The position numbers and the translations under genes were made by a program. A stretch of DNA of 64,000 nucleotides from an uncultured Actinomycetes bacterium (GTDB taxonomy: Bacteria > Actinomycetota > Coriobacteriia > Anaerosomatales > PHET01). Shown here piece by piece: positions 6,400 to 23,633 of this stretch. The notes below the pieces were generated by a model. It saw only the letters and a list, made by a program, of their open reading frames with translations. It was not told the origin of the DNA and made no database searches. The DNA is taken from contig CAMTUW010000007.1 of assembly GCA_947085035.1 (NCBI GenBank), positions 89,960 to 153,959 on the forward strand, written 5' to 3'. The first letter of the stretch is position 1, and each line of letters begins with the position of its first letter.

Positions 6400-6402
6400 A
6401 TC

Positions 6403-8671: not shown

Positions 8672-9484
8672 TCATAGCATCGAGGAATACCACTCCCAGA
8701 GTGGCATACCCACTGCGGCGGTGATGACGGCGCCTGTTGCAAGAAACGGTCCGAAGGGGATCTTCCTTCGTGCACCCGAACCGGTTCCGATCACCACCGA
8801 CGCCACCGCACCCACAACGGATCCGAGCATCAAGGCGAGCAACACGTACGGACCCAGAAACAGGCCCATGACAGCCAGAAGCTTGATGTCTCCCATCCCC
8901 AGCCCCGAGACTCCGCGGATCACGGAGTAGAGCGCAGCGATGGCCAAAGGTATCCCCGCACCTAGAAGCATCCCCAGGCCCGCGAACGCAACAGGATGAG
9001 ACAGCGCTGAGCCCGATTGCAGGAGCGGGGCCACCTGATTCGGTGTGACCGTGGAGAGTCCAACGCCGACGAGGCCGATGACGCCCAGAATCGCAACCAA
9101 CTTGTTGGGCAGCCGATACGTGTCCAAGTCAATCGCCGAGAGGATCAACAGCAGATAGAAGAAAGCGATGCCGAATGCTGTTCTGAGAGAGAGCCCCCAC
9201 AGTGCCCACGCCAGTAGCCACAGGACACCGGATGTGAGTTCGACCGCAGGATAACGTACAGGTATCGGAGCGCCACACTCGCGGCACTTGGCTTTGAGAG
9301 CGAGCCATGAAACCACAGGAATGTTGTCGAGCCAACTGATGGAGCCCCCACATGACGGGCAGCGAGATCCCGGGTGCGACAAGGACTCGCTGCGGGGGAA
9401 TCGCCAGATCACGACGTTGGCGAAGCTCCCGAAGACGAGTCCCAAGAGGGCGACGACGAGCGGGACGAACACGTCGGGCAACAC
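8672..9484 (-). CDS. pilD: Prepilin peptidase / N-methyltransferase (A24 family)
   Basis: 270 aa polytopic protein with 'GSFANVVIWR', the zinc-ribbon-like 'CPSCGGSISWLDNIPVVSWL...CRECGAPI' and a 'GMGDIKLLA' active-site region. Confidence 0.92.
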   Translation of the reverse strand: MLPDVFVPLVVALLGLVFGSFANVVIWRFPRSESLSHPGSRCPSCGGSISWLDNIPVVSWLALKAKCRECGAPIPVRYPAVELTSGVLWLLAWALWGLSLRTAFGIAFFYLLLILSAIDLDTYRLPNKLVAILGVIGLVGVGLSTVTPNQVAPLLQSGSALSHPVAFAGLGMLLGAGIPLAIAALYSVIRGVSGLGMGDIKLLAVMGLFLGPYVLLALMLGSVVGAVASVVIGTGSGARRKIPFGPFLATGAVITAAVGMPLWEWYSSML

Positions 9485-9597: not shown

Positions 9598-9954
9598 CTA
9601 GTTCTCGTAGTTGTGGTTGAGGATGGAGCAGTCGAAATCACCCGCGGTAACGTCGTAGGTACCGGTGCCGGGACACGTGGACGACTTGGCCCAGTCCTTG
9701 ACGTACCCGCCGATCGCGGCCTGCCCCTGTGCCATGGTGCCGATCGAAGAGGCGAGGTTGGTCTCGCTCGCGGCGACCCACTGCTGCACAGCGCCGTCGA
9801 GTGTACGCAGGTTCGCCGAACACGCCCGCCTGCGCGCGGAATCGCTGGCCGAGTTGAAGACCGGGATGGCGACAGCTACAAGAATACCGATAATAAGGAC
9901 AACGACCATCAGCTCGACAAGGGTGAATCCCTCGTCCTTTCGGAACAGCCTCAT
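9598..9954 (-). CDS. pilA: Major type IV pilin
   Basis: 'MRLFRKDEG|FTLVELMVVVLIIGILVAVAIPVF' is a canonical class III signal peptide with Phe+1 and Glu+5. 118 aa. The ATG at 9954 is preceded by GGAAGGAGGG. The ORF track extends to 10014. Confidence 0.85.
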   Translation of the reverse strand: MRLFRKDEGFTLVELMVVVLIIGILVAVAIPVFNSASDSARRRACSANLRTLDGAVQQWVAASETNLASSIGTMAQGQAAIGGYVKDWAKSSTCPGTGTYDVTAGDFDCSILNHNYEN

Positions 9955-10063: not shown

Positions 10064-11272
10064 TCACTGCACCAGTGTGATGACCTGGAACATGGGCAGG
10101 TAGAGCGCCACGACCATACCGCCCACCACGACGCCGAGCGTCGCCATCATGAGGGGCTCGATGAGCGACGTGAGGCCATCGACCGCCATGGAGACCTCTT
10201 CGTCATAGAAGTCCGCGATCTTGTTGAGCATCGCATCGAGCGCACCGGTCTCCTCGCCCACGGCGATCATCTGGACGAGCATCGACGGGAACACCTTGCT
10301 CTCGGAGAGCGGCTTGGCGATCGTCTCGCCCTCTTTGATGGCCGAGCGCGTCTTCCTCACGGCCTGAGCGACCATCTCGTTGCCTGCGGTGTCCGCGACG
10401 ATGTCGAGGGCCGCGAGGATGGGCACGCCTGCAGAGATGAGCGTCCCGAACGTGCGCGTGAACCTGGCGAGCGAGATCTTTCGGATCAGCGGGCCGAACA
10501 CCGGCATCTGGAGTAACGCAGCATCCCAGATGAGCATGCCCGGTCCCTTCGACCACCACTTGAAGGCGAAGACCGTCGAGAAGATCAAGACGACGGTCAC
10601 GATGCCACCAAAGCCGGCAACGAAATTGGAGGCGTTCACGAGCATCTGCGTCATGAACGGGAGTTCACCGCCCATGTCCGAGAACATCTTCTCGAAGGTC
10701 GGCACGACGAAGACCATCATGGCCACGAGGATGACGAGCACCATTCCGCCCATCGCCACCGGATAGGTCATCGCGGACTTGATCTTGCCCTTGAGCGTCT
10801 GTTCCTGCTCGAAGTGATCAGCCACCCTGTTCAAGACGTCGTCCAAGACACCACCGGTCTCCCCGGCGCGAACCATGTTGACGAAGATGGGCGGAAACAC
10901 CTTCGGGTGGCGCACAAGTGAATCCGAAAGCGACTGCCCGGACTCCACATCTTTGGCCAGCTGACCGATGATGTCTCGCAGATAGGCGTTCTCGGTCTGG
11001 CTGCCCAGGATCGAGAGGCACTTCGTCAGCGAGAGACCTGCGTTGATCATGGTGGAGAACTGCCGGGCGAAGATGGTCACGTCTTTGACCTTGACACCGG
11101 TACCGAACGTGATGTTGCCAAGCGACGCGATGCCACCTTGCTGATTCAAGTCCAAGATGATGTAGCCCATCTGGGTGAGCTTGGCTTGGACCGCATCTTT
11201 CGATTCGCCCTCGAGCTTGCCTTTGGCGATTTTGCCCGCCTTGTCGCGGACGGTATATGAAAACGTGGACAT
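10064..11272 (-). CDS. pilC: Type IV pilus platform protein PilC (GspF family)
   Basis: 402 aa with two GspF-type repeats ('FARQFSTMINAGLSL', 'FTRTFGTLISAGVPI') and three TM segments. The ATG start has a GAGGAG RBS. Confidence 0.92.
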   Translation of the reverse strand: MSTFSYTVRDKAGKIAKGKLEGESKDAVQAKLTQMGYIILDLNQQGGIASLGNITFGTGVKVKDVTIFARQFSTMINAGLSLTKCLSILGSQTENAYLRDIIGQLAKDVESGQSLSDSLVRHPKVFPPIFVNMVRAGETGGVLDDVLNRVADHFEQEQTLKGKIKSAMTYPVAMGGMVLVILVAMMVFVVPTFEKMFSDMGGELPFMTQMLVNASNFVAGFGGIVTVVLIFSTVFAFKWWSKGPGMLIWDAALLQMPVFGPLIRKISLARFTRTFGTLISAGVPILAALDIVADTAGNEMVAQAVRKTRSAIKEGETIAKPLSESKVFPSMLVQMIAVGEETGALDAMLNKIADFYDEEVSMAVDGLTSLIEPLMMATLGVVVGGMVVALYLPMFQVITLVQ

Positions 11273-11301: not shown

Positions 11302-12972
11302 TCAGACGATGACGCGCACGATCTCTTCGACCGACGTCAATCCCAATCGTACCTTCTCGAGGCCGTCTTGCCTGAGCGTCAACATGCCCTGCGACGTGGC
11401 GACCCGCTTGATCTTGTCAGCGGTGGCCTCCTCAACGCACAGTTTCGAGATCTCCTCGCTCATCATCAACACCTCGTGGACGCCGATACGACCTTTGTAT
11501 CCGGTTCCACCGCACTTGCGACACCCCACTGACCGGTAAACAGACTCGGGGAGGTTATCGGCAGTGTATCCCGCGTCGATGAGAACCTTGGGCTTCGGGC
11601 GCCACTCCTGCTTGCACTCCGAACACAACTTGCGAGCGAGTCGCTGCGCGAGGATGCAGTCGAGCGCTGAGGAGACGAGGAACGGCTCGACCCCCATCTC
11701 GATCAACCGCGTCAGCGCGCTGGGCGCATCGTTGGTGTGCAGGGTGGAGAGCACCAGGTGGCCGGTGAGCGCGGATTCGATGGCGATCTGCGCCGTCTCG
11801 CGGTCACGGATCTCTCCGACCAAGATGACGTCGGGCGAACAGCGCAGAAACGATCGCAGCGCGCGCGCGAAGTCGAGGCCCGCCTTGTGATTCATCTGGC
11901 ACTGGTTGATACCGGGTAGACGGTACTCCACAGGGTCTTCTGCGGTGACGATGTGGCGCGCGGGATCGTTCAGCACGTTGATCGCCGCATAGAGCGAAGT
12001 CGACTTGCCCGAGCCGGTAGGACCGGTGACCAGTATGGCCCCGTAGGGTTTCTTGAACGAGCTCTCGAACCGCTCGAGCGCCGACGGGAGGAAGCCGAGG
12101 TCTGTCAGGCGCAGGAGGATCGAGTCCTTGCGAAGGATCCGCAACACGATGCGCTCACCGTACACCGTGGGAAGCGACGAGACACGGAAGTCGAGCCTGA
12201 GGGTGCCGATGGTGACTGCACAGTGCCCGTCCTGGGGGCGCCTGGAGTCCGAGATATCCATTTCGGCCATGATCTTGAATCGGGAGATCATGGCCTGTTG
12301 GGTCGATTTCGGACTCCTCATGATCTCGTGGAGCACGCCGTCGATGCGAAGGCGGATGCGCAGGTCGTTCTCCTGCGGTTCGACGTGGATGTCTGAAGCA
12401 CCGTCTGACACGGCCTTTTGGATGATGAAGTTCACGAGCTTGACCGCCGGCGCTTCGGACTCGATGTCTGTCAGCTGCGACAGTTCGTCGTCACCGATGT
12501 CCTCGGTTCCCACGAACGCATCATCCGTCGTGTGTTCGGCGACCTTGTAGTACTCCTCGATCGCGGCCACGATGTCGTCTTTTGTCGAGATGGCGGGCTT
12601 GATCTCGAAACCGGTGATGATCCGCAGGTCATCGAGCGCGAGCACGTTCTGTGGATCGGCCATCGCGACGAGGAGTGTCCCGGCGGTCAGTGAGACCGGC
12701 ATGAGGGTGTAGCGGCGAGCCAGGTCTCTTGGAACGACGGCGACTGCACCGGGCTCAGGCGGTCTTTCCGAGAAGTTGATGTATTCGATGCCGATCTGCT
12801 TGGCCATGACCGAGAGAATCGCGCCTTGCGTGGCGTATCCCAAGTCAACCAGAACGCGGCCGAGCGGACTGCCCGTGGCCCTGTGGACCTCAAGCGCGTC
12901 ATTCAACTGCCCCTCAGTGATGATGCCAGCTCGCATGAGGAGCTGACCAAGCCTTTGTCCTGCTTCCGCCAC
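11302..12972 (-). CDS. pilB: Type IV pilus extension ATPase PilB (GspE family), paralogue 1, with a complete MshEN-type N-terminal motif pair
   Basis: 556 aa with Walker A 'GPTGSGKST', an Asp box, Walker B 'ILVGEIRD', a His box 'TGHLVLSTLHTN' and the tetracysteine 'CSEC...CRKCGGTGYKGR'. The N-terminal T2SSE_N-like domain begins 'RLGQLLMRAGIITEGQLNDAL'. Confidence 0.93.
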   Translation of the reverse strand: MAEAGQRLGQLLMRAGIITEGQLNDALEVHRATGSPLGRVLVDLGYATQGAILSVMAKQIGIEYINFSERPPEPGAVAVVPRDLARRYTLMPVSLTAGTLLVAMADPQNVLALDDLRIITGFEIKPAISTKDDIVAAIEEYYKVAEHTTDDAFVGTEDIGDDELSQLTDIESEAPAVKLVNFIIQKAVSDGASDIHVEPQENDLRIRLRIDGVLHEIMRSPKSTQQAMISRFKIMAEMDISDSRRPQDGHCAVTIGTLRLDFRVSSLPTVYGERIVLRILRKDSILLRLTDLGFLPSALERFESSFKKPYGAILVTGPTGSGKSTSLYAAINVLNDPARHIVTAEDPVEYRLPGINQCQMNHKAGLDFARALRSFLRCSPDVILVGEIRDRETAQIAIESALTGHLVLSTLHTNDAPSALTRLIEMGVEPFLVSSALDCILAQRLARKLCSECKQEWRPKPKVLIDAGYTADNLPESVYRSVGCRKCGGTGYKGRIGVHEVLMMSEEISKLCVEEATADKIKRVATSQGMLTLRQDGLEKVRLGLTSVEEIVRVIV

Positions 12973-13073: not shown

Positions 13074-13892
13074 TCAGTGGTCGCGCATCCGGGCTTGCTC
13101 GAGGTCTGCGAACAAGACGTCTGCGTACCTGCGGAACCGATCGTACGTGGCGGTGCCGGCCTTGACGCCAACGCGCGCGTCCCCGAACCACATCTCGACC
13201 GGCGCGGCCATGACGAATCGAGGTACACCCTCCCTGACCATCTCACTGGCAGGCGCGTGCGCCGAGGCAGCGGGCGCGAACTCCGCGCTGCCTCCGTCAC
13301 GGGAGTGAACGCGCGCGACGGGTCGCTCGCTGACGGGTCTCGTCGGTACGAGGATGGCGGGCTCGGGTTGCTCACGCACGAGGCCCTCCCAGAGCTCGAG
13401 ATCCAGCTCGGGCTCTGGCTCGGGCTCGGGTTCGGGCTCGGGCTCGGGCAGCAGCGCGGCGATCTCGGCACCGAACAGCTCTTCTGACTCGGGCTGGAGG
13501 GGTTCAGGTTCCTCGACCCAAGGCATAGGGGTGACAGCAGAAACAATCGGTTCCGGAGTGTCCGATGGTGGCTCGTAAGTCTCGATACGCTCCGAGAGGG
13601 CTGCCTTGGCAAGCTCCACGATGGGGGCCGGGTGTTCGGCCGGCACCCAATCGCCGGTCCTCAACGGGGTCAGCAATGTGGCGCTGGGGGCGTCGGCCGA
13701 CGGCTCGAGACTCAGGCCCGCGAGATCCGTGTCAACCGGTCCGAGAGTCGCGAAAGTCGACACCGGTGCCGGAACGTGCACGTACTCGTGCCCCCGGATC
13801 CGAGACGATCTGACCAGGGTGGCGATGAGCACCGCGATTGACGCAACAAGAAGCAGGAGCGTTCCGGCGAGGATGATGGCCCGGACGTCCAT
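13074..13892 (-). CDS. Single-pass membrane protein with an acidic (Glu-Pro)7 linker and an unassigned C-terminal domain
   Basis: The ATG at 13892 lies just after the GTPase stop; the ORF track start at 13925 would overlap the GTPase gene. It has a TM helix 'AIILAGTLLLLVASIAVLIATLV' followed by RSSRIR (positive-inside suggests a cytoplasmic C-terminus) and an EPEPEPEPEPEPE tract. I recognise no family. Confidence 0.55.
   Translation of the reverse strand: MDVRAIILAGTLLLLVASIAVLIATLVRSSRIRGHEYVHVPAPVSTFATLGPVDTDLAGLSLEPSADAPSATLLTPLRTGDWVPAEHPAPIVELAKAALSERIETYEPPSDTPEPIVSAVTPMPWVEEPEPLQPESEELFGAEIAALLPEPEPEPEPEPEPELDLELWEGLVREQPEPAILVPTRPVSERPVARVHSRDGGSAEFAPAASAHAPASEMVREGVPRFVMAAPVEMWFGDARVGVKAGTATYDRFRRYADVLFADLEQARMRDH
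13408..13449 (-). repeat. Hexanucleotide tandem repeat (GGYTCN)n encoding (Glu-Pro)7
   Basis: The plus strand reads ctcgggctctggctcgggctcgggttcgggctcgggctcggg, which translates as EPEPEPEPEPEPE in the minus-strand CDS. Confidence 0.8.
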
Positions 13893-13899
13893 GCGCCCC

Positions 13900-14427
13900 C
13901 TACCCCATACTCTCGACGATTTCATAGAGAAGGCCCAACAACACAGCCTTCACCGAGTCCTTCTCGCGCGCGTCGACCGGAAGGAGTGGCACGTTGTCGG
14001 CGAGGCCCAAGTCGGTACGTACGCGCCGTATCGTCTCGGTGTCGTCGGAATCCACCTTGTTCGCGGCGACAACGAACGGCACCTCCGACATCTCGGTGAA
14101 GAAAGAGATCATCTCCCGTGCATCGGACAAGGTCTGTGGCTCGGTTGCGTCCACCAGCAAGACGAATCCGAGCATGCCTTCGGAGAGAGTCTCCCACATG
14201 AATGAGAAGCGCGCCTGACCAGGTGTCCCGAACAGATAGAGGACGACCTCGTCGGAGACGGTGATACGACCGAAGTCCATGGCGACGGTGGTCTCTCCCC
14301 CGCTCTCACCCGAAGCGGCGCTGACCTGTCTCTCTGTCGAGAGAACAGTGATCTCGCTGACCGCCTTGATGAAGGTGGTCTTGCCGGCGTTGAACGGTCC
14401 TGTTACGACGACCTTGACGGACTGCAT
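13900..14427 (-). CDS. Small P-loop GTPase of the CvnD/COG2229 (MglA-related) type
   Basis: 175 aa with G1 'GPFNAGKTT', 'TVAMDFGRI' (switch I region), G3 'LFGTPGQ' (canonical Asp replaced, as in MglA/CvnD-type GTPases) and G4 'NKVD'. It closely resembles the Streptomyces conservon CvnD pattern '...TVAMDFGRI...LYLFGTPGQ.RF.FMW'. Confidence 0.85.
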   Translation of the reverse strand: MQSVKVVVTGPFNAGKTTFIKAVSEITVLSTERQVSAASGESGGETTVAMDFGRITVSDEVVLYLFGTPGQARFSFMWETLSEGMLGFVLLVDATEPQTLSDAREMISFFTEMSEVPFVVAANKVDSDDTETIRRVRTDLGLADNVPLLPVDAREKDSVKAVLLGLLYEIVESMG

Positions 14428-14442
14428 AAGCGAAACGCTCCT

Positions 14443-16296
14443 CTAGAGGTTCTTGACGCCTTCGATGATCTTGAGAATGGTCGCCTTGTCAACGCGGGTG
14501 TCACGTGACAGAACTCCACTGCCAGCTTCAGGTAGTTCTTTGACGTTCGCCTGAGGCCTCGACGATAGCCTCCGCGATGCCCCGGTCAGCGCCGAAAGCT
14601 CATCGGTCAATCCGCCCGAAAAGCCGTAGTCCCCGATACCTTCCTCGCCCAGAAACGCGTCTGTGGAGATCACGCCGCCCGCGGCTACCGGCTCATCATC
14701 GCGAAGCAGATCCACGTCGAACCCTGCCTTGATCGCGAGAGGACTCATCTGATCGTCGGCGATCAACTCGGCGTCCACGTCCAGTGAGTCGAGCAACGAT
14801 CTGAAATCGGGCTCCTCGACCGCGCTCGTGTCTTGCGAAACGGTTGCCAGTGGAGGCTCGGGTACTTCGATCCAGCCCGGGGTGACAACGTCATCAGCAC
14901 GCAGGGACATGGGCTCAGTGACGACCTCGGATGGCTCGGCTGTGACGGGCGACAGTAGATCCGAGGGCAGTTCGCCGAGCCCCAAACCCATCAAGTCACG
15001 CTCGAAGTCCAGCCCAACGGGTTCCGGCTCAGGCTCCGGTTCGGGTTCCGGTTCGGGTTCCGGCTCAGGCTCAGGTTCCGGCTCCGGTTCCGGTACGCTG
15101 ACGAGCCGCTCGAGCAGGTCCTCAACCGAGGGTGCGCCGGTGTCGTCCGGGCGATCATAGCCGATGAACGCGGGTTCCTCGACGGGAACATAAGGGGCAT
15201 GGGTGAGGGTGGACTCTTCAGGCGCAACCTCGAGTCCGCCCTCAGGGAAATACTCCAACACCGCCCCCATGAACTCTTCCAAGGCGAGTTGGTCTTCGGG
15301 AGAGGGCTCCGCGGTCGCAGCGCCGAGGAACTCCGGGATCTCCATGGGCCCGGCGGCGATCGCAACGCGTGCAGCGTCTGTGGCAGCTGAATCACGTTCG
15401 GCCAGCGCTTCTGCCTGTTCAGCTTCTGAGCGCCTCCTCGCCTCCTCGACGAGCTTCTCCTCACGCGCCAGCGCAACGTGCAGTTGAGCCTCCTCGACAC
15501 GGCGGCGTTCAGCCTCGATGACGGCGAGTCTCGCTTCTCGCTCGTCGCGCTCGGCACGGAAACGCGCGATCTCGTCATCTGTCGCGAACTCGAGCAGACC
15601 GGCGCTGAACAGTCCGTAGACGATGCGTGCGACCTCGAAGTCCGTCCGGCCTGACTCCACCGCCAGGTCAGCGACGCTACGCGTCCCGTCGACCTGCAGC
15701 AGGAGCTGCCATTCGACCGGCTTGAGCGATATCTCGAACGTTCCCTCTCCGGGGGCCGTGGCCATCTTGAAAACGACCTCGACCGAGGGAATCCGCTTGC
15801 GGATCCTGCCCCACTCCTCGAGACGACGCGAGCCTTCCATCACCACGTTCTCAATCGAGACGGTCAAACCGATGTCTTCATCGACGACTTCGGGCATCGT
15901 CTCGAAATCGAATTGCCCCTCGTCCCAACGCATCAGGTCGAAGATGGTGTCTTGGATCTGCTCGGTCACGAAGGACTCAAGGACCTCCTCGGTGATGTAG
16001 CCCTCATCGATCAGGATCTGCCCCAGCCGGCGCTCGCCCGCAGGCTCAGCGGCGCGCAGGTCAAGCCCGCGCACCAGCGCCTGGGCCGTGATCCGTTGGG
16101 CTTTGACGAGCCTCTCTCCGAGAGGTTCACTGTGCCAGTTCGAGCTGGCGAAGAAGACATCGCCGTCCCGAAACCAGACGCTCCCGTGCGCTTCGTCCTC
16201 ACGGACGATGCGCAGCACGCCGGTCTTACGGCTGAACGTCACCAGTTGGAAGACGTCCGGCAGACTGAAGTCTTTGAGGTTGCCACTGAGCGCCAT
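14443..16296 (-). CDS. DUF4388-type protein with tandem MshEN-like motifs, a winged-helix-like segment, a coiled coil and a long acidic (Pro-Glu)12 tail
   Basis: The N-terminus 'LSGNLKDFSLPDVFQLVTFSRKTGVLRI' is the characteristic DUF4388 opening. Residues 90-113, 'RLGQILIDEGYITEEVLESFVTEQ', fit the 24-residue MshEN motif. Residues ~190-237 resemble a wHTH. Residues 402-426 are (PE)12P. Confidence 0.7.
   Translation of the reverse strand: MALSGNLKDFSLPDVFQLVTFSRKTGVLRIVREDEAHGSVWFRDGDVFFASSNWHSEPLGERLVKAQRITAQALVRGLDLRAAEPAGERRLGQILIDEGYITEEVLESFVTEQIQDTIFDLMRWDEGQFDFETMPEVVDEDIGLTVSIENVVMEGSRRLEEWGRIRKRIPSVEVVFKMATAPGEGTFEISLKPVEWQLLLQVDGTRSVADLAVESGRTDFEVARIVYGLFSAGLLEFATDDEIARFRAERDEREARLAVIEAERRRVEEAQLHVALAREEKLVEEARRRSEAEQAEALAERDSAATDAARVAIAAGPMEIPEFLGAATAEPSPEDQLALEEFMGAVLEYFPEGGLEVAPEESTLTHAPYVPVEEPAFIGYDRPDDTGAPSVEDLLERLVSVPEPEPEPEPEPEPEPEPEPEPEPEPVGLDFERDLMGLGLGELPSDLLSPVTAEPSEVVTEPMSLRADDVVTPGWIEVPEPPLATVSQDTSAVEEPDFRSLLDSLDVDAELIADDQMSPLAIKAGFDVDLLRDDEPVAAGGVISTDAFLGEEGIGDYGFSGGLTDELSALTGASRRLSSRPQANVKELPEAGSGVLSRDTRVDKATILKIIEGVKNL
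15019..15093 (-). repeat. Hexanucleotide tandem repeat encoding (Pro-Glu)12-Pro
   Basis: The plus strand reads gggttccggctcaggctccggttcgggttccggttcgggttccggctcaggctcaggttccggctccggttccgg. The antisense frame produces the spurious 'GSGSGS' ORF 14828..15160. Confidence 0.85.
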
Positions 16297-16335
16297 CGAG
16301 CGTCATGCATCCGTTCTGGTCGAGGTGCGCTGCGG

Positions 16336-16929
16336 CTAGCCGAGAATCTCGGCCATCGAGTCCGCCGCGGCGCGCATGTCGTACAAGACGAGTCCCAACT
16401 TCGCGTCGGTGTCGGCAAGACAGGTGAGAACCGCCCGGCCGCCGGCGGCGATGAGCATGACGTACCCGCCCTCACCCTCGATGAACACCTGCGACAGCGA
16501 ACCGCGACCAAGCTCAGCCGCAGCGCGCTCGCCAAGGCCGAGAATCGCTGCGGACATGGCGCCCACCCGATCCTCGTGCATGCCATCAGGCAGTGCGGAC
16601 GCCATCGTGAAGCCGTCGAGTGAGACCAAGGCAGCCGCCTGGATGTCCTGGCTGTCTTCCATCAGATCGTTGAGCGCCGTCGCCAGTCGCTCTTCGCGCG
16701 TGGCCTGCCGCGCAGAGGCCGCCGGACGGACAGCCGCGACGGGTGTTGGCGGAGCAGTCGCAGGCACGGGCTCAGGCGACGGGACCGCAGCGGTCACTGT
16801 CGGCGTAGACGCCGCATCAACTGAGACGATCGGAACCACGACGGGCGGAGAGATCAGCTCGTCATCGTCTTCGAACACATCCTCGTCGGTATCGCTCAAG
16901 AAGAAGTCACCGAACGCGTTGTCTGCCAT
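16336..16929 (-). CDS. Roadblock/LC7 (MglB/CvnB-like) domain protein with an acidic, Pro-rich N-terminal extension
   Basis: The C-terminal ~110 aa, 'DIQAAALVSLDGFTMASALPDGMHEDRVGAMSAAILGLGERAAAELGRGSLSQVFIEGEGGYVMLIAAGGRAVLTCLADTDAKLGLVLYDMR', form a typical Roadblock/LC7 pattern. The ATG at 16929 is preceded by GGAGG. The ORF track extends to 16989. Confidence 0.8.
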   Translation of the reverse strand: MADNAFGDFFLSDTDEDVFEDDDELISPPVVVPIVSVDAASTPTVTAAVPSPEPVPATAPPTPVAAVRPAASARQATREERLATALNDLMEDSQDIQAAALVSLDGFTMASALPDGMHEDRVGAMSAAILGLGERAAAELGRGSLSQVFIEGEGGYVMLIAAGGRAVLTCLADTDAKLGLVLYDMRAAADSMAEILG

Positions 16930-17010
16930 TGCAGGAGCACCTCCCAGCGGCTCCGAGCGTGTTCCCAGTTCGCGGGTACCAACAAGCAAGCCCGCAGTCG
17001 AACGGGCTGA

Positions 17011-17114: not shown

Positions 17115-18785
17115 TCACACCACAACGCGCATGATCTCCTCGATCGACGTCTGTCCGAGCAGAATCTTCGAGAAGCCGTCGTCGCGCAACGTGAGCATCC
17201 CCTCAGACACCGCTTGACGTTTGATCTCGTCCGACGAGACGTTTTCCACGGTGAGCCGCTCGAGCTCTTCTGACATCGACATGACCTCATGGACGCCCAT
17301 GCGCCCTTTATAGCCGATGCCGTTGCACTTCTTGCAGCCTCGATGGCGATAGACTGTCGGAGGGTTCCCGGGCTCGAAAGGAAACCCGATGCGCTCGAGT
17401 GCCGCTTCCTCGGGCGTGTACTGCTCCTTGCACGCGCCGCAAAGACGCCTGGCGAGACGCTGCGCGACGACCAGCGTGACCGCCGATGCCGTGAGAAACG
17501 GCTCGATTCCCATCTCCGTGAGTCGCGTGATCGCTGAGGGCGCGTCATTGGTGTGCAGCGTGGACAGCACGAGGTGCCCTGTCAGCGCTGCCTCGATGGC
17601 GATCGTTCCCGTCTCTCGGTCACGAATCTCGCCGATCATGACCTTGTCAGGATCCTGACGCAGGATGGAACGAAGGGCGGCCGCGAACGAGAGTCCCGCC
17701 TTCTCGTTGACGTGGACCTGAGATAGACCCGCCAAACGGTACTCGACGGGGTCCTCGACCGTGATGAGGTTGGTCTTGGGGTCGTTCGTCTCGTTGATGG
17801 CGGCGTACAGGGTCGTGGACTTTCCTGAGCCGGTGGGGCCCGTGACCAGAATGGCGCCGTACGGTAGCGCGAGCGCGTCCAGGAGCCGTTGCATGTTCTG
17901 TTCGAGGAATCCCAGGTCCTTCAGAGACATCATGATGGAATCCCTGCGCAGCAGTCGCAAGACGGCCAGCTCGCCGTGCACGAGTGGCAATGTCGCGACG
18001 CGGAAGTCGACCGCTTTGCCGTCAAGCGTCACACCGAAGCGGCCATCGAGTGGAACCCGGCGCTCAGAGATGTCCATGCCCGAACTGATCTTGAGGCGGC
18101 TGATGAGTTGCCGGTGCACCTTCTTCGGCGTGTGGAGGATCTCTCGGCACACACCGTCGATGCGAAACCTCACCCGCATCTCGTGCTCATACGGTTCGAT
18201 GTAGATGTCGCCTGCGCCCTGCCTGATCGCGTCGGTCACGATCTGATTCATCAACTTCGCAACGACCGAGTTGGCTGAATCGTCGACCTCCTCTTCCCGG
18301 TCGACGGAGCTGATGGCGTCTTCGAGGTCACCGAGCATGCCGTCCACGTTGGTCTGGTTCGTGGCGAACCGGTCGATGGTCGACACCAGATCGCTCATGG
18401 TGGCGACAACGGGTCGAATCTCCAGCCGCGTCACGATCCGCAGGTCGTCGATGGCGAAGATGTTCGCCGGGTCCGACATAGCGACGACGAGCTCGTCGTC
18501 TTCGAGCTTGATGGGGAGCACGTGGTGCTTGCGCATGAGTTCTGTTGGGATGAGCATCGCGGCGCTGGGATCGATGTCGTAAGAGGCGATGTCGACGAAG
18601 GCGAGGCCCATCTGCTCGGCAACAGCCTGAGCGACGCGAGTCTCGGTCGCCAGCCCCATCTCCTCCATCACGACCGCCAACGGGCGACCAGCGGACTGCT
18701 CGAGCGCAGCGGAAAGCTGCTCATCCGTTATGACACCAGCGGAAACAAGCATACGGCCGAGCCTTTGCATGGTGGCCTGTGACAA
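17115..18785 (-). CDS. Second GspE/PilB-type pilus ATPase (paralogue 2), with a degenerate MshEN-like N-terminus
   Basis: 556 aa with Walker A 'GPTGSGKST', 'MIGEIRD', 'TGHLVLSTLHTN' and the tetracysteine 'CGAC...CKKCNGIGYKGR', so it is extension type rather than PilT-like. The TTG start at 18785 is 3 nt after the aroE stop; an alternative ATG lies at 18770. Confidence 0.9.
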   Translation of the reverse strand: MSQATMQRLGRMLVSAGVITDEQLSAALEQSAGRPLAVVMEEMGLATETRVAQAVAEQMGLAFVDIASYDIDPSAAMLIPTELMRKHHVLPIKLEDDELVVAMSDPANIFAIDDLRIVTRLEIRPVVATMSDLVSTIDRFATNQTNVDGMLGDLEDAISSVDREEEVDDSANSVVAKLMNQIVTDAIRQGAGDIYIEPYEHEMRVRFRIDGVCREILHTPKKVHRQLISRLKISSGMDISERRVPLDGRFGVTLDGKAVDFRVATLPLVHGELAVLRLLRRDSIMMSLKDLGFLEQNMQRLLDALALPYGAILVTGPTGSGKSTTLYAAINETNDPKTNLITVEDPVEYRLAGLSQVHVNEKAGLSFAAALRSILRQDPDKVMIGEIRDRETGTIAIEAALTGHLVLSTLHTNDAPSAITRLTEMGIEPFLTASAVTLVVAQRLARRLCGACKEQYTPEEAALERIGFPFEPGNPPTVYRHRGCKKCNGIGYKGRMGVHEVMSMSEELERLTVENVSSDEIKRQAVSEGMLTLRDDGFSKILLGQTSIEEIMRVVV

Positions 18786-18788
18786 TCG

Positions 18789-19676
18789 TCATCCCCTCGT
18801 TCGCCGCGACGCGAGCTCAGTCTCGGCCGCTTGACGCATCACGTCGCGTGGCACCCGTACCTGTGCGTTGTCATTCCAGATATCGACCGCGATCGCCCCT
18901 TGGGCCACGAGCATACTGATTCCGTCGAACGCCGTCGCGCCCACCTGTGCGGCCTCGCGCACCAGTGCCGTTGGGAGCGCGGTCCCGTACACCATGTCGT
19001 AGACCACCTGCCCCGGAGAGATCCATGCGATCGGGAGCGGACTCGGATCATCGGGCTTCATGCCAACCGGAGTCGCATTGACGATGAGATCAGCGCGCCT
19101 CACCCACTCTTCGGACTGAGGCAACGCGGCGACTCGGGCCTCCATTCCGCCGAGGTGCGGATGCATCCTTTGAAGAAGCTTCTCGCCGCGTGTGGCATCG
19201 CGAGCGACGACCGTCACGCTGGCCGCACGCGCCAACAGAAGGGCGACGAAAGCGCCGCCGGCGGCCCCTCCCGAACCGATGATGACGATGTGTTTGCCTT
19301 CGGGAGTGAAGTCGACGTCGGTCTGCAGCGCCTCGAGCAGTCCTCGTCCATCGGTGTTGTAGCCCACCAGCTTGCCGTCGACGACATGCACGGCATTCAC
19401 GGCCCCGGCCATGCTCGCGGCCATCGCCACCTCGTCACACAGTTCGAGAACGGCGTTCTTGAACGGCATCGTGACGCTGAAGCCCACCAGCTGAAGCGAG
19501 GGAGCAAGCGCCATGAAGCGCCGAAGCGCGGTCTCGTCGGGCAGCTCCAGCGGCACGAACGCCCAGTTCAGGTCGAGGTGCGCGTAGACGGCGTTGTGCA
19601 TCGCTGGCGAGAGCGTGTGCCCGAGAGGGTGGCCGATGACGCATGCGAGTTTCGTCTTGCCGTCGATCCCGGTCAT
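18789..19676 (-). CDS. aroE: Shikimate 5-dehydrogenase
   Basis: 'KLACVIGHPLGHTLSPAMHNAVY' and the NAD(P) site 'VIIGSGGAAGG' are AroE hallmarks. The ATG at 19676 is preceded by AAAGGA; alternative ATGs lie at 19694 and 19712. The ORF track extends to 19775. Confidence 0.88.
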   Translation of the reverse strand: MTGIDGKTKLACVIGHPLGHTLSPAMHNAVYAHLDLNWAFVPLELPDETALRRFMALAPSLQLVGFSVTMPFKNAVLELCDEVAMAASMAGAVNAVHVVDGKLVGYNTDGRGLLEALQTDVDFTPEGKHIVIIGSGGAAGGAFVALLLARAASVTVVARDATRGEKLLQRMHPHLGGMEARVAALPQSEEWVRRADLIVNATPVGMKPDDPSPLPIAWISPGQVVYDMVYGTALPTALVREAAQVGATAFDGISMLVAQGAIAVDIWNDNAQVRVPRDVMRQAAETELASRRTRG

Positions 19677-19719
19677 CAGCGTCGTCCTTTTCATGCGGGA
19701 GACTCGCGACATGTCGAGT

Positions 19720-20208
19720 CTAGGGTAGTGGGCGCCGCTCCGCCAACAGGCACCTTTCCAAGTGACGGAGAACAAGTGTGTGCGGGAGGTCGGAGGAGGA
19801 CAGCGGGGTCACGAGAATCGTGCGCATGCCCAAGAGGTTGCCGCCCAAGATATCTGTGAACAGCTGATCGCCAACGACGGCCGCGCTGCCCTGGTTCGAT
19901 CCCATCTGTGCGAGCCCCTTCTTGAACGCGAACGGTAACGGCTTGAGCGCTTTTGCCACGAGGTCGAATCCTATTCGGCGCGCCACATCGGGAACGTGAG
20001 GGTGCCAGTTGTTTGACACGATGCAGACGCGAAAACCCTTGGCCTTCACTGCACGTGCCCACTCGACCAAGTCGTCAGGGACTTCTTGAGCATCACGGGG
20101 CATGAGGGTGTTGTCCAAGTCGATGAGCAGAGTGTCGATCCCGCTCGCGGACAGCTCTTCGAGGTCTATGTCTCGCACGCTACGGTAGTAATCGTCGGGT
20201 CTCAGCAT
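19720..20208 (-). CDS. YqeG-family HAD-IIIA phosphatase
   Basis: 162 aa with 'LLIDLDNTL' (DxDxT motif I), 'CIVSNN' (motif II) and 'VVGDQLFTDILGGN' (motif IV). The yqeG-aroE adjacency matches Bacillus. Confidence 0.8.
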   Translation of the reverse strand: MLRPDDYYRSVRDIDLEELSASGIDTLLIDLDNTLMPRDAQEVPDDLVEWARAVKAKGFRVCIVSNNWHPHVPDVARRIGFDLVAKALKPLPFAFKKGLAQMGSNQGSAAVVGDQLFTDILGGNLLGMRTILVTPLSSSDLPHTLVLRHLERCLLAERRPLP

Positions 20209-20894
20209 CAGTGGTCCTGCACTCCGTCTCCATCATGGTCGTGGTCGCCGGCTCCGGCACCGGCCTCTCTCATCCGCTCGAGCACCTGGTCGAGTCGGGC
20301 GCTGTCTTCGAGACGGCCGTACTTGGCCAGCGCGTCCCGGGCAACGATGACCCCTTCGTAGAGGGCTTCCTCATCCATCCACGTGAGCGTATCGGACATG
20401 ATCTCGTCGATGAGCGGCTCGATCTGTGCCTGGTTGGCCTGCGCGTCCTCGATGTAGAGCAACTGCGCGAGGTTGCTCGTCAGAAGACCGGAACGCGGAT
20501 TCGCCTCAAGACCCCGGCGTGCGATGGCCAGCCCTTCTTCCTCGGACACACTTATTCTCGCGAGCCACGACGCGAGATAGTACGCCTGCTCGAACTGGGG
20601 ATCGAGCACAGTGACCATGTTGAGCGTCGGCATCATGTACGTCTGTTTCGCGAGGGGAATTCCTTCGTAGTATTCGTGGAACTGCGGGTCGAGCCGGTTC
20701 CAGAGAACTGCGGCCACGAATCTGCGCAGACCTCCCAGGTAGGCGAACCCGGTGCGCCCCACGCTACTGGTGGCGCCGACTCCCGCATCCTGCGGCGCTG
20801 CGGTGACAGCGAGGGCTTGGGCGCTGAACAGCAGCACCGCCGCGAGCGCCATACCGACCACGAACGTGCGGATGTCGAGGGCTCCCGTCTTCAC
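20208..20894 (-). CDS. Secreted or membrane-anchored helical-repeat protein with a His/Asp-rich C-terminal tail
   Basis: It has an N-terminal signal/TM 'FVVGMALAAVLLFSAQALA' and the C-terminus 'GAGAGDHDHDGDGVQDH'. It is translationally coupled to the ABC-2 permease upstream (4-nt overlap). I recognise no family. Confidence 0.5.
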   Translation of the reverse strand: MKTGALDIRTFVVGMALAAVLLFSAQALAVTAAPQDAGVGATSSVGRTGFAYLGGLRRFVAAVLWNRLDPQFHEYYEGIPLAKQTYMMPTLNMVTVLDPQFEQAYYLASWLARISVSEEEGLAIARRGLEANPRSGLLTSNLAQLLYIEDAQANQAQIEPLIDEIMSDTLTWMDEEALYEGVIVARDALAKYGRLEDSARLDQVLERMREAGAGAGDHDHDGDGVQDH

Positions 20895-21628
20895 AGGTCA
20901 CGCGCCTGAAACACTCGGGTCGCCACGAGTAGAAGAATGGCCACCCACGCAACGAACGCGGTGAGCATCGTCAGAGCATAGACGCCGGAGTACCCGGTCC
21001 CGTGAGAAACCGCGTTCACCACGTCGAACATCTCAAGCGATGGGATGTAGCTCGGGGCCGAGACGTTCGCAGCGCCACCCGTGTACAGGGTCGAGATCGA
21101 ATGTCCGACGAAGACGAACACGAGGGCCCCCACTGACGAGGTGACCGCGCCCACACGGGTCGACAGCGCCATTCCGAACGCGCCAACGACGCCCATCTCG
21201 AGCCACACCGCGAAGGCAGCCATCACCAAGCGGGTCATAAGCGATCCATAGACCACTCCCCCGATCGCGATGGTGACCACTGTGGACGCAGCGATAACGG
21301 CACCGGTCACGAGGAATATCCCCAGCCAGGTGCCTGCAAGGTACTGCCATCGACGCACATCCCGAGAAAGCAGGCCGAACACCGTCCGGCGTTCCACCTC
21401 GCCCGGGACCCGCGTGGCCGCGAGCGCGATCGTGACGACGAGCGAGGACGCGTACATGAGCGAGATCGCGACCTCGCGAAAGACCGCGTCGACGACACCG
21501 ACACCGTAGCTTGGAAGCGAGGGCGCCACGATGGCGAGCAGACCCGCGAAGACGATCACCATCCACACGACCTTGCGGCGGATGGCGTCAGCCACAACCG
21601 CGCGGGCGATCACGAGAACCGGCCTCAT
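20891..21628 (-). CDS. ABC-2 type transporter permease
   Basis: 245 aa with about six hydrophobic segments. It overlaps the ATPase gene stop by 4 nt. Confidence 0.7.
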   Translation of the reverse strand: MRPVLVIARAVVADAIRRKVVWMVIVFAGLLAIVAPSLPSYGVGVVDAVFREVAISLMYASSLVVTIALAATRVPGEVERRTVFGLLSRDVRRWQYLAGTWLGIFLVTGAVIAASTVVTIAIGGVVYGSLMTRLVMAAFAVWLEMGVVGAFGMALSTRVGAVTSSVGALVFVFVGHSISTLYTGGAANVSAPSYIPSLEMFDVVNAVSHGTGYSGVYALTMLTAFVAWVAILLLVATRVFQARDL

Positions 21629-22572
21629 GTCACACCGCCTTCCTCGACGGGTGCCGCCTCGAGCAGGTTCGCGAAGTACTCCTCGAGAGAATCCCGCTTG
21701 GGGGTCACGGCGAGCAAGCGCCAGCCGGAGTCGTAGAGTGTATCGATGACCTCTCGGACATCTGCGTCAGCTACCGAAAAGACCGCGACGCCGCCCACGA
21801 CGGCCTGCTCGACGATTCGAGCAGCGACCGCGTCCGGCAGTGCGCCATCGCCTTGGACCCTAATCGACGTCTGACCGGCCACGTTGAGCAGGTCGTCGAT
21901 GTGTCCTCGTGCCGCAACCCGGCCCCTGTCAAGAATCGTCACCTCGTCGCAGACCGCCTCGACCTCGGAGAGCTGGTGTGACGAGAGCAACACGCCAACG
22001 CCTTGTCCCTTCAGCTCTTGGATGATGTTGCGGACATCTCGCTGGCCCACCGGGTCAAGGCCTGACGCGGGCTCATCGAACACGATCACTTCGGGAGACC
22101 CGAGCAGCGCCACGGCGAGTCCCAGTCGCTGCAACATGCCTCGCGAGAAGCGGGCGAGTCGCGTTCCTCCCTTATGCTCGAGTCCCACTCGTTCGAGCAG
22201 TTCGTCGATCTCGAGAAGAGCTTCTCGCCGATCGAGCCCGAGCAGCTCGGCATGAAGACCGAGTACCTCTGAAGCACTGAGCAGTGAGGGGAAGTAGGGC
22301 TGCTCCGGAAGGAATCCGACGTTGGAGCGCGCGCCCGGAAGATGGGCGGGGACGCCGGATATCTCGAAGACGCCCGCCGAAGGTGTCACCAGCCCGAGCA
22401 GCATCTTGAGCGTGGTGGTCTTCCCTGCCCCGTTGGGGCCGAGCAGACCGTGAACGCTTCCGTGCGAGACGCTGAGAGAGACTTCCGTCACCGCATCGGG
22501 CCTGCCCACTGCGGTCGAGCCGTAGGACTTGCGCGCACCCTCGATACGGATCGCGAGCGATTCTGCGGTCAC
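21625..22572 (-). CDS. ABC transporter ATP-binding protein (ABC-2/DrrA-like)
   Basis: Walker A 'GPNGAGKTT', signature 'FSRGMLQRLGLA', Walker B 'VIVFDEP' and an H-loop 'LSSH'. Confidence 0.9.
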   Translation of the reverse strand: MTAESLAIRIEGARKSYGSTAVGRPDAVTEVSLSVSHGSVHGLLGPNGAGKTTTLKMLLGLVTPSAGVFEISGVPAHLPGARSNVGFLPEQPYFPSLLSASEVLGLHAELLGLDRREALLEIDELLERVGLEHKGGTRLARFSRGMLQRLGLAVALLGSPEVIVFDEPASGLDPVGQRDVRNIIQELKGQGVGVLLSSHQLSEVEAVCDEVTILDRGRVAARGHIDDLLNVAGQTSIRVQGDGALPDAVAARIVEQAVVGGVAVFSVADADVREVIDTLYDSGWRLLAVTPKRDSLEEYFANLLEAAPVEEGGVT

Positions 22573-23633
22573 CTGCCGAACACCTCCTTGGATATCGCCT
22601 TGGCTTTGAGGAAGTCGCGCTTGTTCGTGGTGAACGTGTGCGATCCGTCCTTGCCCGTCAGTACGTAGTATAGATATTCGGTCTCGGCAGGTCGGGCTGC
22701 CGCTTCGAGGGCGGCCAGTCCCGGACTCGCGATCGGACCGGGTGGCAGGCCCCGTGCGCGGTAGGTATTGTAGGGACTGTCGATCTCTAGGTCTTTGTAC
22801 CGCAAACGGAACCGGTTTCCCGGCAAGACGTATTCCACCGTAGCGTCGATCTCGAGTCGCATCCCTTTGGCCAGCCGGTTGTGTATGACCGAGGAGACCA
22901 GCGCACGCTCATCCGCCAACCTGCTCTCACGCTCGACCATCGACGCCAGCGTGACGAGTTCGTTCAGTCCGAGTCCTCTGGCCGCAGCGGCGCTCGTGTC
23001 GACCCGCGCGATCTCGGCGTCGAACTGGTCGAGCATCATCTCGAGTACCTGCTGGGCAGACGAGCCCTCCCGAACGCGATAGGTCTTGGGGAAGAGGTAG
23101 CCCTCGAGCGACCCGTCGTAGGCGTCAGCAAGGTACGGATGGCCCTCGACGAAGTGCTCCGCACCACCCTTGGCGAGCGCGAGCGTCTCCTCTGCGGGAA
23201 TGCCCAGCTCCTTTTCGAGTCGGGCCGCGACCTGCTCGACCACGAACCCCTCGGGAATCGTCACCGCGACGTAGGCTACCGACGGGCCTTCCAAGAGGCG
23301 GTCGATGGCGTCGTTGTAAGACATCCCCGTGGACAGGTCGTAGTCACCGGCCCGCAGCGCCCCGTCAGCCCCGACCAGACGAACCCGGAGCCTGAACGCG
23401 TTCGGGTTTGCCACGACGCCTTCCTTCGCCAGAACGATCCCGATCCCGGCGGTGCTCTCCCCCTGCTTGATGGTCACGCTCACCGGACGCCCCGCCTCGA
23501 CGGCGCGAGACGGACGGAGGAAGACGGCCCAGGTCGCATAGACAAGCATGATCACGAACAGCATTGCGACCGAGACCACCGCGATCAGCGCGGCGCGTTT
23601 GCGGGGACGGTCCGTGTCAGTGCCGCGGGCCAT
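22569..23633 (-). CDS. mltG: Endolytic murein transglycosylase MltG (YceG-like)
   Basis: N-terminal TM and a YceG-domain pattern '...LEGYLFPKTY...', 'LASMVERE', 'SPYNTYRARGLPPGPIASPG'. Confidence 0.9.
   Translation of the reverse strand: MARGTDTDRPRKRAALIAVVSVAMLFVIMLVYATWAVFLRPSRAVEAGRPVSVTIKQGESTAGIGIVLAKEGVVANPNAFRLRVRLVGADGALRAGDYDLSTGMSYNDAIDRLLEGPSVAYVAVTIPEGFVVEQVAARLEKELGIPAEETLALAKGGAEHFVEGHPYLADAYDGSLEGYLFPKTYRVREGSSAQQVLEMMLDQFDAEIARVDTSAAAARGLGLNELVTLASMVERESRLADERALVSSVIHNRLAKGMRLEIDATVEYVLPGNRFRLRYKDLEIDSPYNTYRARGLPPGPIASPGLAALEAAARPAETEYLYYVLTGKDGSHTFTTNKRDFLKAKAISKEVFGR

Follow-up and report, generated by a model that had tools for sequence, protein, structure and literature searches.

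A type IV pilus operon in an uncultured actinobacterium of the Coriobacteriia/Anaerosomatales lineage probably contains a regulatory module dedicated to the pilus. It lies in a 64,000-nt stretch of contig CAMTUW010000007.1 (assembly GCA_947085035.1), which we refer to as a whole as the window, and consists of genes for a Roadblock/LC7 protein, a PATAN (DUF4388) protein, a small guanosine triphosphatase (GTPase), and a single-pass membrane protein, placed between two pilB genes. Judged by sequence and by analogy with characterized relatives, the module would be of the PATAN-coupled Group 5 type of the MglA family and a kinase-less relative of the conservon. In the simplest model, the module would act as a GTPase-gated adaptor, licensing or positioning the extension ATPase at the pilus base.

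All module genes are on the minus strand, and the central block reads, from 5' to 3', pilB_up, Roadblock, PATAN, GTPase, membrane protein, and pilB_dn, with 185, 39, 15, 7, and 101 nt separating these six genes. The four module genes are tightly packed (gaps of 7 to 39 nt) inside an aro-pil operon. The open reading frames (ORFs) agree with the original prediction of four co-directional genes between two PilB genes, and its assignments (Roadblock/LC7, DUF4388, P-loop GTPase, and single-pass membrane protein) are borne out by Pfam and NCBIfam matches and by hydropathy.

Synteny with pilus genes

To find relatives, genomes were scanned with an 18-sequence GTPase alignment, and the best 80 of at least 600 matches were used; the result is a sample, not a census. 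Relatives from the window's own lineage were retrieved by exact-protein look-up. Within this lineage, every contig long enough carries the full pilB-Roadblock-PATAN-GTPase-membrane protein-pilB block (L001, L002, L087, which is a 2.5-Mb record, L089, L090, and L091), and the L088 contig, which begins within the Roadblock gene, has the block from there on. Five lineage genomes keep all six genes, namely, that of the window and four further Coriobacteriia/Anaerosomatales metagenome-assembled genomes (MAGs).

Beyond the lineage, Roadblock, PATAN, and GTPase genes followed by pilB were found in at least six Actinomycetota loci (L008, L035, L036, L037, L039, and L046, the last from Egicoccus, class Nitriliruptoria), with GTPase identities of at least 52%. 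Each of the six has a single PilB, and four have a weaker-matching PilB/PilT-like ATPase gene directly downstream. Where the contigs are long enough, a weaker PilB/PilT-like gene, pilC, and pilA come after pilB, and aroE stands just upstream in five loci. L022, a seventh contig, is not long enough for a judgment. The L008 locus (5183-6423) has an unusual layout, with three tandem Roadblock genes followed by a 1130-aa PATAN protein and the GTPase, and with aroE between the module and pilB. At least ~40 loci in the scan are ordinary conservons.

Because the block recurs in lineage relatives and its Roadblock-PATAN-GTPase-pilB order in six more distant Actinomycetota loci, it is no chance juxtaposition. 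The survey thereby answers a question raised with the original prediction: GTPase, Roadblock, and DUF4388 genes are indeed syntenic with pil genes in related genomes. Among the loci examined, only those of the window's lineage have the second PilB and the membrane protein, and by sequence comparison both are lineage-specific additions.

The flanking PilB ATPases

Both flanking genes encode PilB-type extension ATPases of 556 aa on the minus strand, pilB_up at 17115..18785 (Pfam T2SSE, 5e-136; MshEN, 2.6e-24) and pilB_dn at 11302..12972 (T2SSE, 4.4e-136, and MshEN). Against TIGR02538 (type_IV_pilB) they reach 618 and 636 bits, respectively, both below the equivalog cutoff of 675.65; their assignment as PilB is supported by an operon that also holds pilC, pilA, pilD, and pilMNO. 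Walker A, Walker B, His box, and tetracysteine motifs are readable in pilB_up, and from their sequences both PilBs look catalytically intact. Both also exceed the 38-bit cutoff of the NCBIfam motif for cyclic di-GMP (c-di-GMP), with 39.7 bits for pilB_up and 59.5 bits for pilB_dn.

The two proteins are ~50% identical. pilB_up shares 49 to 53% identity with pilB_dn and other actinobacterial PilBs, and each window PilB is 49 to 55% identical to other actinobacterial PilBs. Against the module-following pilB of at least six other actinobacterial loci, pilB_dn is the better match (E ~1e-190). These comparisons indicate that pilB_dn is the ortholog of the single module-following PilB of other Actinomycetota, that pilB_up is an extra paralog specific to the window's lineage, and that the pair stems from an old duplication of which both copies were conserved.

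The original prediction offered a choice between two motor ATPases as a possible role of the module, which would pick pilB_up or pilB_dn for the pilus base, for example to serve two pilus modes or pilin sets. The module does sit exactly between both paralogs in every lineage genome examined, the duplication is old with both copies retained and apparently intact, and the MshEN motif scores of the two PilBs differ. Yet the same triad accompanies a single PilB in the six or more other actinobacterial loci, usually followed by the weaker PilB/PilT-like gene; the operon in the window holds only one pilC and one major pilin gene, and nothing indicates that the PATAN domain discriminates between paralogs. 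Since relatives outside the lineage have a single PilB, choosing between PilBs is unlikely to be the ancestral function. We consider motor selection an unlikely account of the module, and possible, at best, for the window's lineage only.

We also considered whether pilB_up replaces PilT and rejected this, given its full PilB architecture and the presence in L091 of both PilBs plus a PilT-like gene. That gene (354 aa; 13258-14322) follows pilB_dn; PilT-like genes also lie 3' of pilB in other Actinomycetota, and no pilT gene was found in the operon or elsewhere in the 64-kb window.

Motifs and relatives of the GTPase

The GTPase (13900..14427, minus strand) is a small Ras-superfamily protein of 175 aa that matches several Pfam and NCBIfam families (ATP_bind_1 at the top with 3.5e-20, and Ras, Arf, GTP_EFTU, and small_GTP). 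The GPN-loop identity implied by the top match was rejected because that match is partial and because motifs and neighbors are those of the MglA family. Of the top PDB profile hits, only Thermus thermophilus MglA matches over the full length (E 3e-11). As is characteristic of MglA proteins, the GTPase is a single-domain P-loop protein with a G1 of the form GxxxxGK[ST], and a Roadblock gene lies within four genes of its own, here two genes upstream.

Its motifs are intact in the sequence: GPFNAGKT in G1 (residues 10-17), ETTV in G2, FGTPGQ in G3 (residues 66-71), NKVD in G4, and DAR at residues 152-154. G3 lacks the canonical Asp of Ras and keeps PGQ, just as had been noted earlier. According to the comparative genomic study PMC4316618, MglA Groups 2 to 5 are characterized by TT in G2 together with GTPGQ in G3. 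In Group 2, the conservon CvnD group, G4 reads NxFD and G5 reads DAR; in Groups 1, 4, and 5, G4 is of the canonical [NT]KxD form. The window GTPase carries the Group 5 combination of TT in G2 without an arginine finger, GTPGQ, and a canonical G4. Group 1 traits are absent, its G3 being GTPGQ rather than TVPGQ and its G2, ETTV, having no Arg, and from the CvnD set (GGFG[AV]GKT in G1, NxF[DE] in G4, and DAR in G5) it shares DAR only.

We tabulated these motifs for 82 GTPase relatives taken from species-representative genomes or from exact-protein look-up. All 41 conservon GTPases have GGFGxGKT (one GGLGVGKT and one ending in GKS), Nx[FW]x (mostly NxF[DE]), and DAR. The PATAN-following GTPases of Chloroflexota and Aquificales (at least ~30) almost all have GPFxxGKT and NKQD, and G4 is degenerate (NR[AS]x, NKTA) in other pilus-linked actinobacterial GTPases. 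Genes for a REC-GGDEF protein, an alpha/beta hydrolase, and a hexapeptide transferase lie 3' of the PATAN-GTPase pair in one Anaerolineae locus (L015, 13010-13909) and in at least ~12 other Chloroflexota loci; these neighbors gave no clear functional lead.

The GTPase is 83 to 92% identical over more than 120 clusters of the window's lineage, 52 to 60% identical to PATAN-linked GTPases, and 43 to 48% identical to CvnD. Averaged over the lineage, identity is 55% to other pilus-linked actinobacterial GTPases, 56% to those of Chloroflexota, 47% to those of Aquificales, and 45% to CvnD. The closest relatives outside the lineage, among the matches listed, all directly follow a PATAN gene (in Chloroflexota and Actinomycetota). 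We also built a rough neighbor-joining (NJ) tree (100 bootstraps) of window-lineage, other pilus-linked actinobacterial, Chloroflexota, Aquificales, and CvnD GTPases. In this tree, CvnD is monophyletic (bootstrap 100), pilus-linked Actinomycetota together with CvnD are split from Chloroflexota and Aquificales (bootstrap 83), and the pilus-linked actinobacterial GTPases are paraphyletic. This sequence evidence places the GTPase in the MglA family, near the base of the conservon clade, with motifs and neighbors like those of Group 5. The original prediction had ascribed to it a CvnD/COG2229 (MglA-related) pattern; the MglA part of that assignment holds, while its G1 (GPFNAGKT) and G4 (NKVD) set it apart from the CvnD type.

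The PATAN protein and its probable kinship with CvnC

The gene between those for the Roadblock protein and the GTPase (14443..16296, minus strand) encodes a 617-aa scaffold whose residues 4-162 match DUF4388/PatA_N (Pfam PF14332, E 1e-32), that is, the PATAN domain (bioRxiv 10.1101/2021.06.11.447907). Its homologs in Coriobacteriia/Anaerosomatales MAGs are titled DUF4388 domain-containing protein. In an AlphaFold2 (AF2) model from a 59-sequence alignment, three parts are predicted with confidence: a beta core holding a four-helix insert (residues 1-135), a winged helix followed by a 70-residue helix (residues 190-311), and a tail helix (residues 604-616). Residues 312-600 (~290 aa) form an acidic, proline-rich linker (net charge, -56) of low AF2 confidence, which nevertheless includes short lineage-conserved islands, for example DFERDLMGLGLGELP and GGLTDELSALTGA, that are possibly short linear binding motifs. 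The C-terminal part consists of a winged helix-turn-helix (wHTH), a coiled coil, the disordered linker, and the tail helix, and no Response_reg match, and so no CheY-like receiver, was found in the protein. There is no solved PATAN fold for structural comparison; a Foldseek search of the model against the PDB returned nothing significant (TraR came top at E 0.017, the other hits being weak matches to MarR-type winged helices).

The winged-helix segment (15589..15738, minus strand; residues ~187-236) is, by hhalign, probably homologous to the CvnC/DUF742 wHTH, and the protein ends in an amphipathic helix (14446..14505, minus strand; ...RDTRVDKATILKIIEGVKNL-COOH) modeled with a pLDDT, the AF2 local confidence score, of ~80. 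All 37 GTPase-coupled PATAN proteins examined from Actinomycetota, Chloroflexota, and Aquificales carry such a tail motif, as do all 24 CvnC proteins. In the PATAN proteins it follows the pattern h-h-x-[RK]-[LI]-I-x-x-[IV]-[RK]-x-[LI]-COOH, with the winged helix before it and independently of protein length (180 to 1130 aa). Those 24 middle proteins of conservons are DUF742 proteins (E 1.8e-38 for a representative) and end in L-L-x-R-V-L-x-G-L-R-x-L-COOH behind a winged helix of their own. Comparing the CvnC profile with that of short PATAN proteins, hhalign gave a probability of 91% (E 1e-6), with CvnC columns 55-129 aligned on the last 88 PATAN columns, both reaching the C terminus; unrelated and reversed controls stayed at or below 4.5%. 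The N-terminal VRPY...GRT motif of CvnC is absent from the PATAN protein.

Because the profile-profile match coincides with an identical position between Roadblock and GTPase genes, homology of the PATAN C-terminal half to CvnC/DUF742 is a moderately strong inference from sequence, not proof. The kinship appears new, in that we found no description of it in the searched literature, which covers few subscription journals. It strengthens the conservon-like reading that the original prediction gave to the order of Roadblock, middle protein, and GTPase, as does the NJ grouping with CvnD (bootstrap 83). A more tentative proposal, which we hold to be somewhat less probable than not, is that the pilus-linked Roadblock-PATAN-GTPase triad represents the ancestral form of the conservon. 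CvnC would then be a detached PATAN winged helix with its tail, and the PATAN protein would be a bifunctional exchange factor and effector coupling the GTPase state, and possibly c-di-GMP, to PilB/PilC. If true, Group 5 GTPases, the noncyanobacterial PATAN domain, and the conservon would share a common mechanistic origin.

The same resemblances could mean that the locus is a true conservon/AGPS signaling system, whose output is gene expression or another unrelated target, whose kinase is encoded elsewhere, and whose place in the aro-pil operon is incidental. Gene order, the CvnD-like DAR in G5, the CvnC-like half of the middle protein, and the NJ grouping all fit such a system. In contrast, no CvnA-like kinase was found in the block of the window or within ±8-10 kb in four further lineage genomes (L087, L089, L090, and L091), which upholds an observation of the original prediction. 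Moreover, G1 and G4 are not of the CvnD type, the middle protein carries PATAN, a domain that binds PilB/PilC elsewhere, and synteny with pilB is conserved. We therefore regard this reading as very improbable.

The PATAN domain also contains an MshEN-like helical insert (15958..16125, minus strand; residues 58-113). It matches the MshE-related c-di-GMP motif NF053729 with E 6.3e-9 and, in the PDB, the N termini of PilB (6olj/5tsg, E 1e-3) and MshE (5htl, E 0.045). This motif takes the form of two tandem copies of RLGxx(L/V/I)(L/V/I)xxG(L/V/I)(L/V/I)xxxxLxxxLxxQ, 24 residues each; in the insert the first copy is degenerate and the second, RLGQILIDEGYITEEVLESFVTEQ, fits almost perfectly. The AF2 model has four helices at residues 59-122. 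By sequence, the insert resembles an MshEN c-di-GMP site, a likeness that appears to be new. In the relative L089 (GCA_040961035.1; 13950-16311), two GAF-HD-GYP (HD_5) genes lie right 3' of pilB_dn, replacing pilC; as predicted c-di-GMP phosphodiesterases, they hint at a c-di-GMP link for the pilus locus.

Roadblock and membrane proteins

The Roadblock/LC7 protein is of the MglB/CvnB type (16336..16929, minus strand; 197 aa; Pfam Robl_LC7, 5.8e-16). Its ATG start is preceded by GGAGG, and independent gene callers agree on its length. The domain occupies residues 86-172, behind a ~95-aa acidic Pro/Ala-rich N-terminal extension (net charge, -15 in the first 95 residues). Matches in the PDB include 7f8m_A (5e-25), cvnB5 (3leq; 8e-7), and Rv3364c, a mycobacterial CvnB homolog (7e-6), and E is only 0.07 against MglB. 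Among the PDB codes looked up in the literature, only 7YH1 is named, as an Asgard roadblock. Profile searches thus group the 197-aa protein with Roadblock/LC7 and the 175-aa protein with MglA-family GTPases, in keeping with the original prediction.

The single-pass membrane protein (13074..13892, minus strand; 272 aa) was recognized by hydropathy and AF2, with one hydrophobic segment at residues 1-32 (Kyte-Doolittle maximum, 2.87) and an AF2 helix at 3-36. The N-terminal transmembrane helix is followed by an acidic Pro/Glu-rich linker and by a conserved C-terminal beta-hairpin and helix (APVEMWFGDARVGVKAGTATYDRFRRYADVLF), for which the AF2 model gives the hairpin and helix only. The protein matches no Pfam or NCBIfam family, and its C-terminal motif has no sequence match in the PDB (EmrA at E 0.77 was judged a chance hit). 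It has 51 homologs; those that are named all come from MAGs of the lineage (Coriobacteriia and unclassified Actinomycetota), and most of the rest are on metagenome contigs.

Long, acidic, Pro/Glu-rich stretches of low model confidence with (PE)n runs are found in all three non-GTPase proteins of the module. On the minus strand, they span 14506-15360 in the PATAN protein (residues ~312-597), 13218-13775 in the linker of the membrane protein, and 16645-16929 at the Roadblock N terminus, with net charges of -56, -26, and -15, respectively.

Proposed mechanism

We propose that the 175-aa GTPase, whose motifs are intact by sequence, cycles between GTP and GDP, and that the Roadblock protein, probably as a dimer, serves as its GTPase-activating protein (GAP), as MglB and MfpD do. 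The PATAN winged helix and tail helix would be the counterpart of CvnC/MfpC, binding the GTPase and most likely promoting nucleotide exchange. By analogy with cyanobacterial PATAN, the N-terminal PATAN domain would contact PilB at its N-terminal region, PilC at its cytoplasmic N-domain, or both, and engagement of the extension ATPase with the pilus base, or the site of it, would thereby depend on the state of the GTPase. More speculatively, the MshEN-like insert may add a c-di-GMP input. In the Coriobacteriia/Anaerosomatales lineage, the single-pass membrane protein, with its long acidic linker, would tether the complex at the membrane, and its C-terminal hairpin-helix might, speculatively, dock the complex; a second PilB paralog would have been added upstream in the same lineage. 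It is also conceivable, as a speculation, that the PATAN tail helix is instead a membrane-binding amphipathic helix.

Several points weigh against this mechanism. Triads of this type come from comparative genomics, and experimental work is known neither for a Group 5 system nor for the window's lineage. GAP and exchange-factor roles are transferred from distant homologs (Group 2), and PATAN-PilB binding is known for PatA-type (PATAN-REC) proteins only. With regard to CvnC, removing the tails lowers the hhalign probability to 63.8% (E 6.6e-5), and Pfam DUF742 is not matched by PATAN proteins in single-sequence searches, the relationship being seen by profile-profile comparison only. The c-di-GMP motif in the PATAN insert scores 35.5 bits, below the curated cutoff of 38 bits, and its first half-site is degenerate. 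Last, at least ~30 Chloroflexota loci have the PATAN-GTPase pair with no pilus gene within 10 kb, and two Aquificales loci listed have it, one also with Roadblock, without pilus genes.

Because these Chloroflexota and Aquificales pairs lie apart from pilus genes, the core module is not intrinsically pilus-bound. They fit a broader role in which the GTPase marks a pole or site for several machineries, the pilus motor being one client and the operon position a matter of co-inheritance. Such a general spatial regulator has precedent in Myxococcus MglA, which controls pili, gliding, and polarity. Likewise, in Synechocystis, PATAN localizes to the membrane independently of PilB and PilC, which implies other partners. 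Yet adjacency to pilB is strictly kept in divergent Actinomycetota, whose GTPases share ~55% identity, the genes lie close together in one operon, and there are no other conserved client genes nearby. A general polarity role is, in our estimate, improbable here, and we favor the pilus-dedicated adaptor.

Three poorly understood things, Group 5 GTPases, PATAN domains, and conservons, meet in this operon. The PATAN partners known so far are PilB and PilC, in cyanobacteria only, and few conservon outputs are known; a fixed place beside pilB in several Actinomycetota classes names a concrete target, the pilus extension motor. The proposed mechanism would be the first regulatory logic put forward for type IV pili of high-GC monoderm bacteria, and its four to six proteins are a compact set for in vitro work on GAP, exchange-factor, effector, and second-messenger inputs. 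The link to CvnC would in turn provide conservon research with an evolutionary outgroup.

Other features of the window

Upstream of the block, the gene order is alaS-ruvX-mltG-ABC transporter-HAD phosphatase-aroE, followed by pilB_up. The aroE gene for shikimate dehydrogenase (18789..19775, minus strand; orthologs with Shikimate_dh_N and Shikimate_DH domains) ends 3 nt upstream of the pilB_up start and marks the conserved aro-pil operon context. Between mltG and aroE, a set of genes for an ABC ATPase, an ABC-2 permease, a 228-aa protein without a family match, and a YqeG-like HAD phosphatase (19720-23633, minus strand) is kept in every lineage genome examined.

Downstream of pilB_dn, and likewise on the minus strand, are the platform protein gene pilC (10064..11272; Pfam T2SSF, 1.6e-70, two repeats), the major prepilin gene pilA (9598..9954), the prepilin peptidase gene pilD (8672..9484; Pfam A24_N_bact, 2.4e-33, and Peptidase_A24), three pilin-like ORFs, and pilM (3637-4752), pilN (3017-3676), and pilO (2378-3007), then aroC and aroK. 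PilA was recognized from its translation (MRLFRKDEG/FTLVELM...) and from L087 and L088 orthologs with an N_methyl domain; pilMNO rest on ORF calls and phmmer matches across loci, and the L088 orthologs of the pilM/pilO region have PilM_2/FtsA and PilO domains. No secretin match was found in the ORF 3' of pilO (1763-2362) or across the 64-kb window, and this lack of a secretin gene fits a monoderm-type pilus.

A terminator-like scan picked up a weak G+C-rich hairpin (16989..17008, minus strand), with a 7-bp stem and a poor T tract, in the 185 nt that separate pilB_up from the Roadblock gene. Overall, the promoter and terminator scan was uninformative, with 1 promoter-like site versus 1.7 expected and 11 terminator-like sites versus 5.7±2.1 expected. 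Apart from the pilus locus, a 1213-aa ORF (38002-41643, minus strand) joins RecJ (DHH, DHHA1, and RecJ_OB) to HIRAN and an SF2 helicase (DEAD and Helicase_C), an unusual architecture for RecJ.

Comparison with known systems

The window module shares the PATAN/DUF4388 domain with cyanobacterial PatA-type proteins (PixG, PixE, and LsiR), in which this domain alone is enough to switch pilus polarity. In Synechocystis (bioRxiv 10.1101/2021.06.11.447907), PATAN on its own binds both PilB1, at its N-terminal half, and the N-domain of PilC, is membrane localized, and reverses phototaxis; the same work reports PATAN+GspE_N architectures and MglA/MglB neighbors and raises the question of a conserved part for PATAN in regulating pili. 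The input to PatA-type proteins is a phospho-receiver, whereas the window protein, from a monoderm actinobacterium, has no REC domain, carries a CvnC-like C-terminal module, and is partnered by a GTPase/Roadblock pair. As for MshEN of MshE and PilB, the PATAN insert aligns to the region of the tandem 24-residue motif, which both PilBs of the operon carry; it differs in scoring below the cutoff, in its degenerate first half-site, and in a spacer of 8 rather than 5 residues.

The MglA-MglB pairs of Myxococcus and Thermus (Group 1), like the module, consist of a small Ras-like GTPase and its Roadblock regulator. Myxococcus MglA-GTP acts through SgmX and SopA to bring PilB to the pilus base, and PATAN proteins co-occur with SgmX. 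Group 1 GTPases, however, have TVPGQ and an intrinsic arginine finger in G2, both absent from the window GTPase; their mgl genes lie outside the pilus operon, and SgmX and SopA are absent from the window locus.

Conservon/AGPS systems resemble the module in their Roadblock-X-GTPase order, in GTPGQ and DAR, and in a middle protein X with the winged helix and C-terminal tail of CvnC/DUF742, and pilus-linked actinobacterial GTPases group with CvnD in the rough NJ tree. For the mycobacterial conservon GTPase MfpB, the Roadblock protein MfpD (a CvnB homolog) is the GAP and the DUF742 protein MfpC is the guanine nucleotide exchange factor. The differences lie in G1 (GPFNAGKT versus GGFGxGKT in CvnD) and G4 (NKVD versus NxF[DE]), in the PATAN domain of X and its lack of VRPY...GRT, and in the setting: conservons are stand-alone four-gene operons headed by the CvnA kinase gene, while in the window the neighbors are pilus genes and a PilB gene is 5' of the Roadblock gene.

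The closest counterpart is Group 5 of PMC4316618 (Wuichet & Sogaard-Andersen 2015), whose Table S2 lists the order MglB>PATAN>MglA in six Aquificae, Roseiflexus, Acidothermus cellulolyticus (Actinobacteria; locus Acel_1323), and others; the triad also occurs in Deinococcus. With this group the module shares gene order, TT, GTPGQ, NKxD, and the Roadblock partner, although the DAR in its G5 is that of Groups 2 and 3. The original prediction knew of no described case. These triads and the PATAN-PilB/PilC binding in Synechocystis qualify that claim, which stands insofar as we found no description of the module in Actinomycetota pilus operons in the literature searched. PMC4316618 states that Group 1 and 5 genes are "occasionally" beside PATAN genes and does not mention pili in this connection, and its catalogue, confined to genes within four positions, records no pilus link, whereas the window triad lies inside a type IV pilus operon. 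The fixed place of the triad directly upstream of pilB in Actinomycetota pilus operons appears new. Also set apart from the catalogued triads are the 617-aa PATAN protein with its ~290-aa acidic linker and the added membrane protein and second PilB, and this lineage-specific elaboration, with a second PilB and a putative membrane tether, is a new observation.

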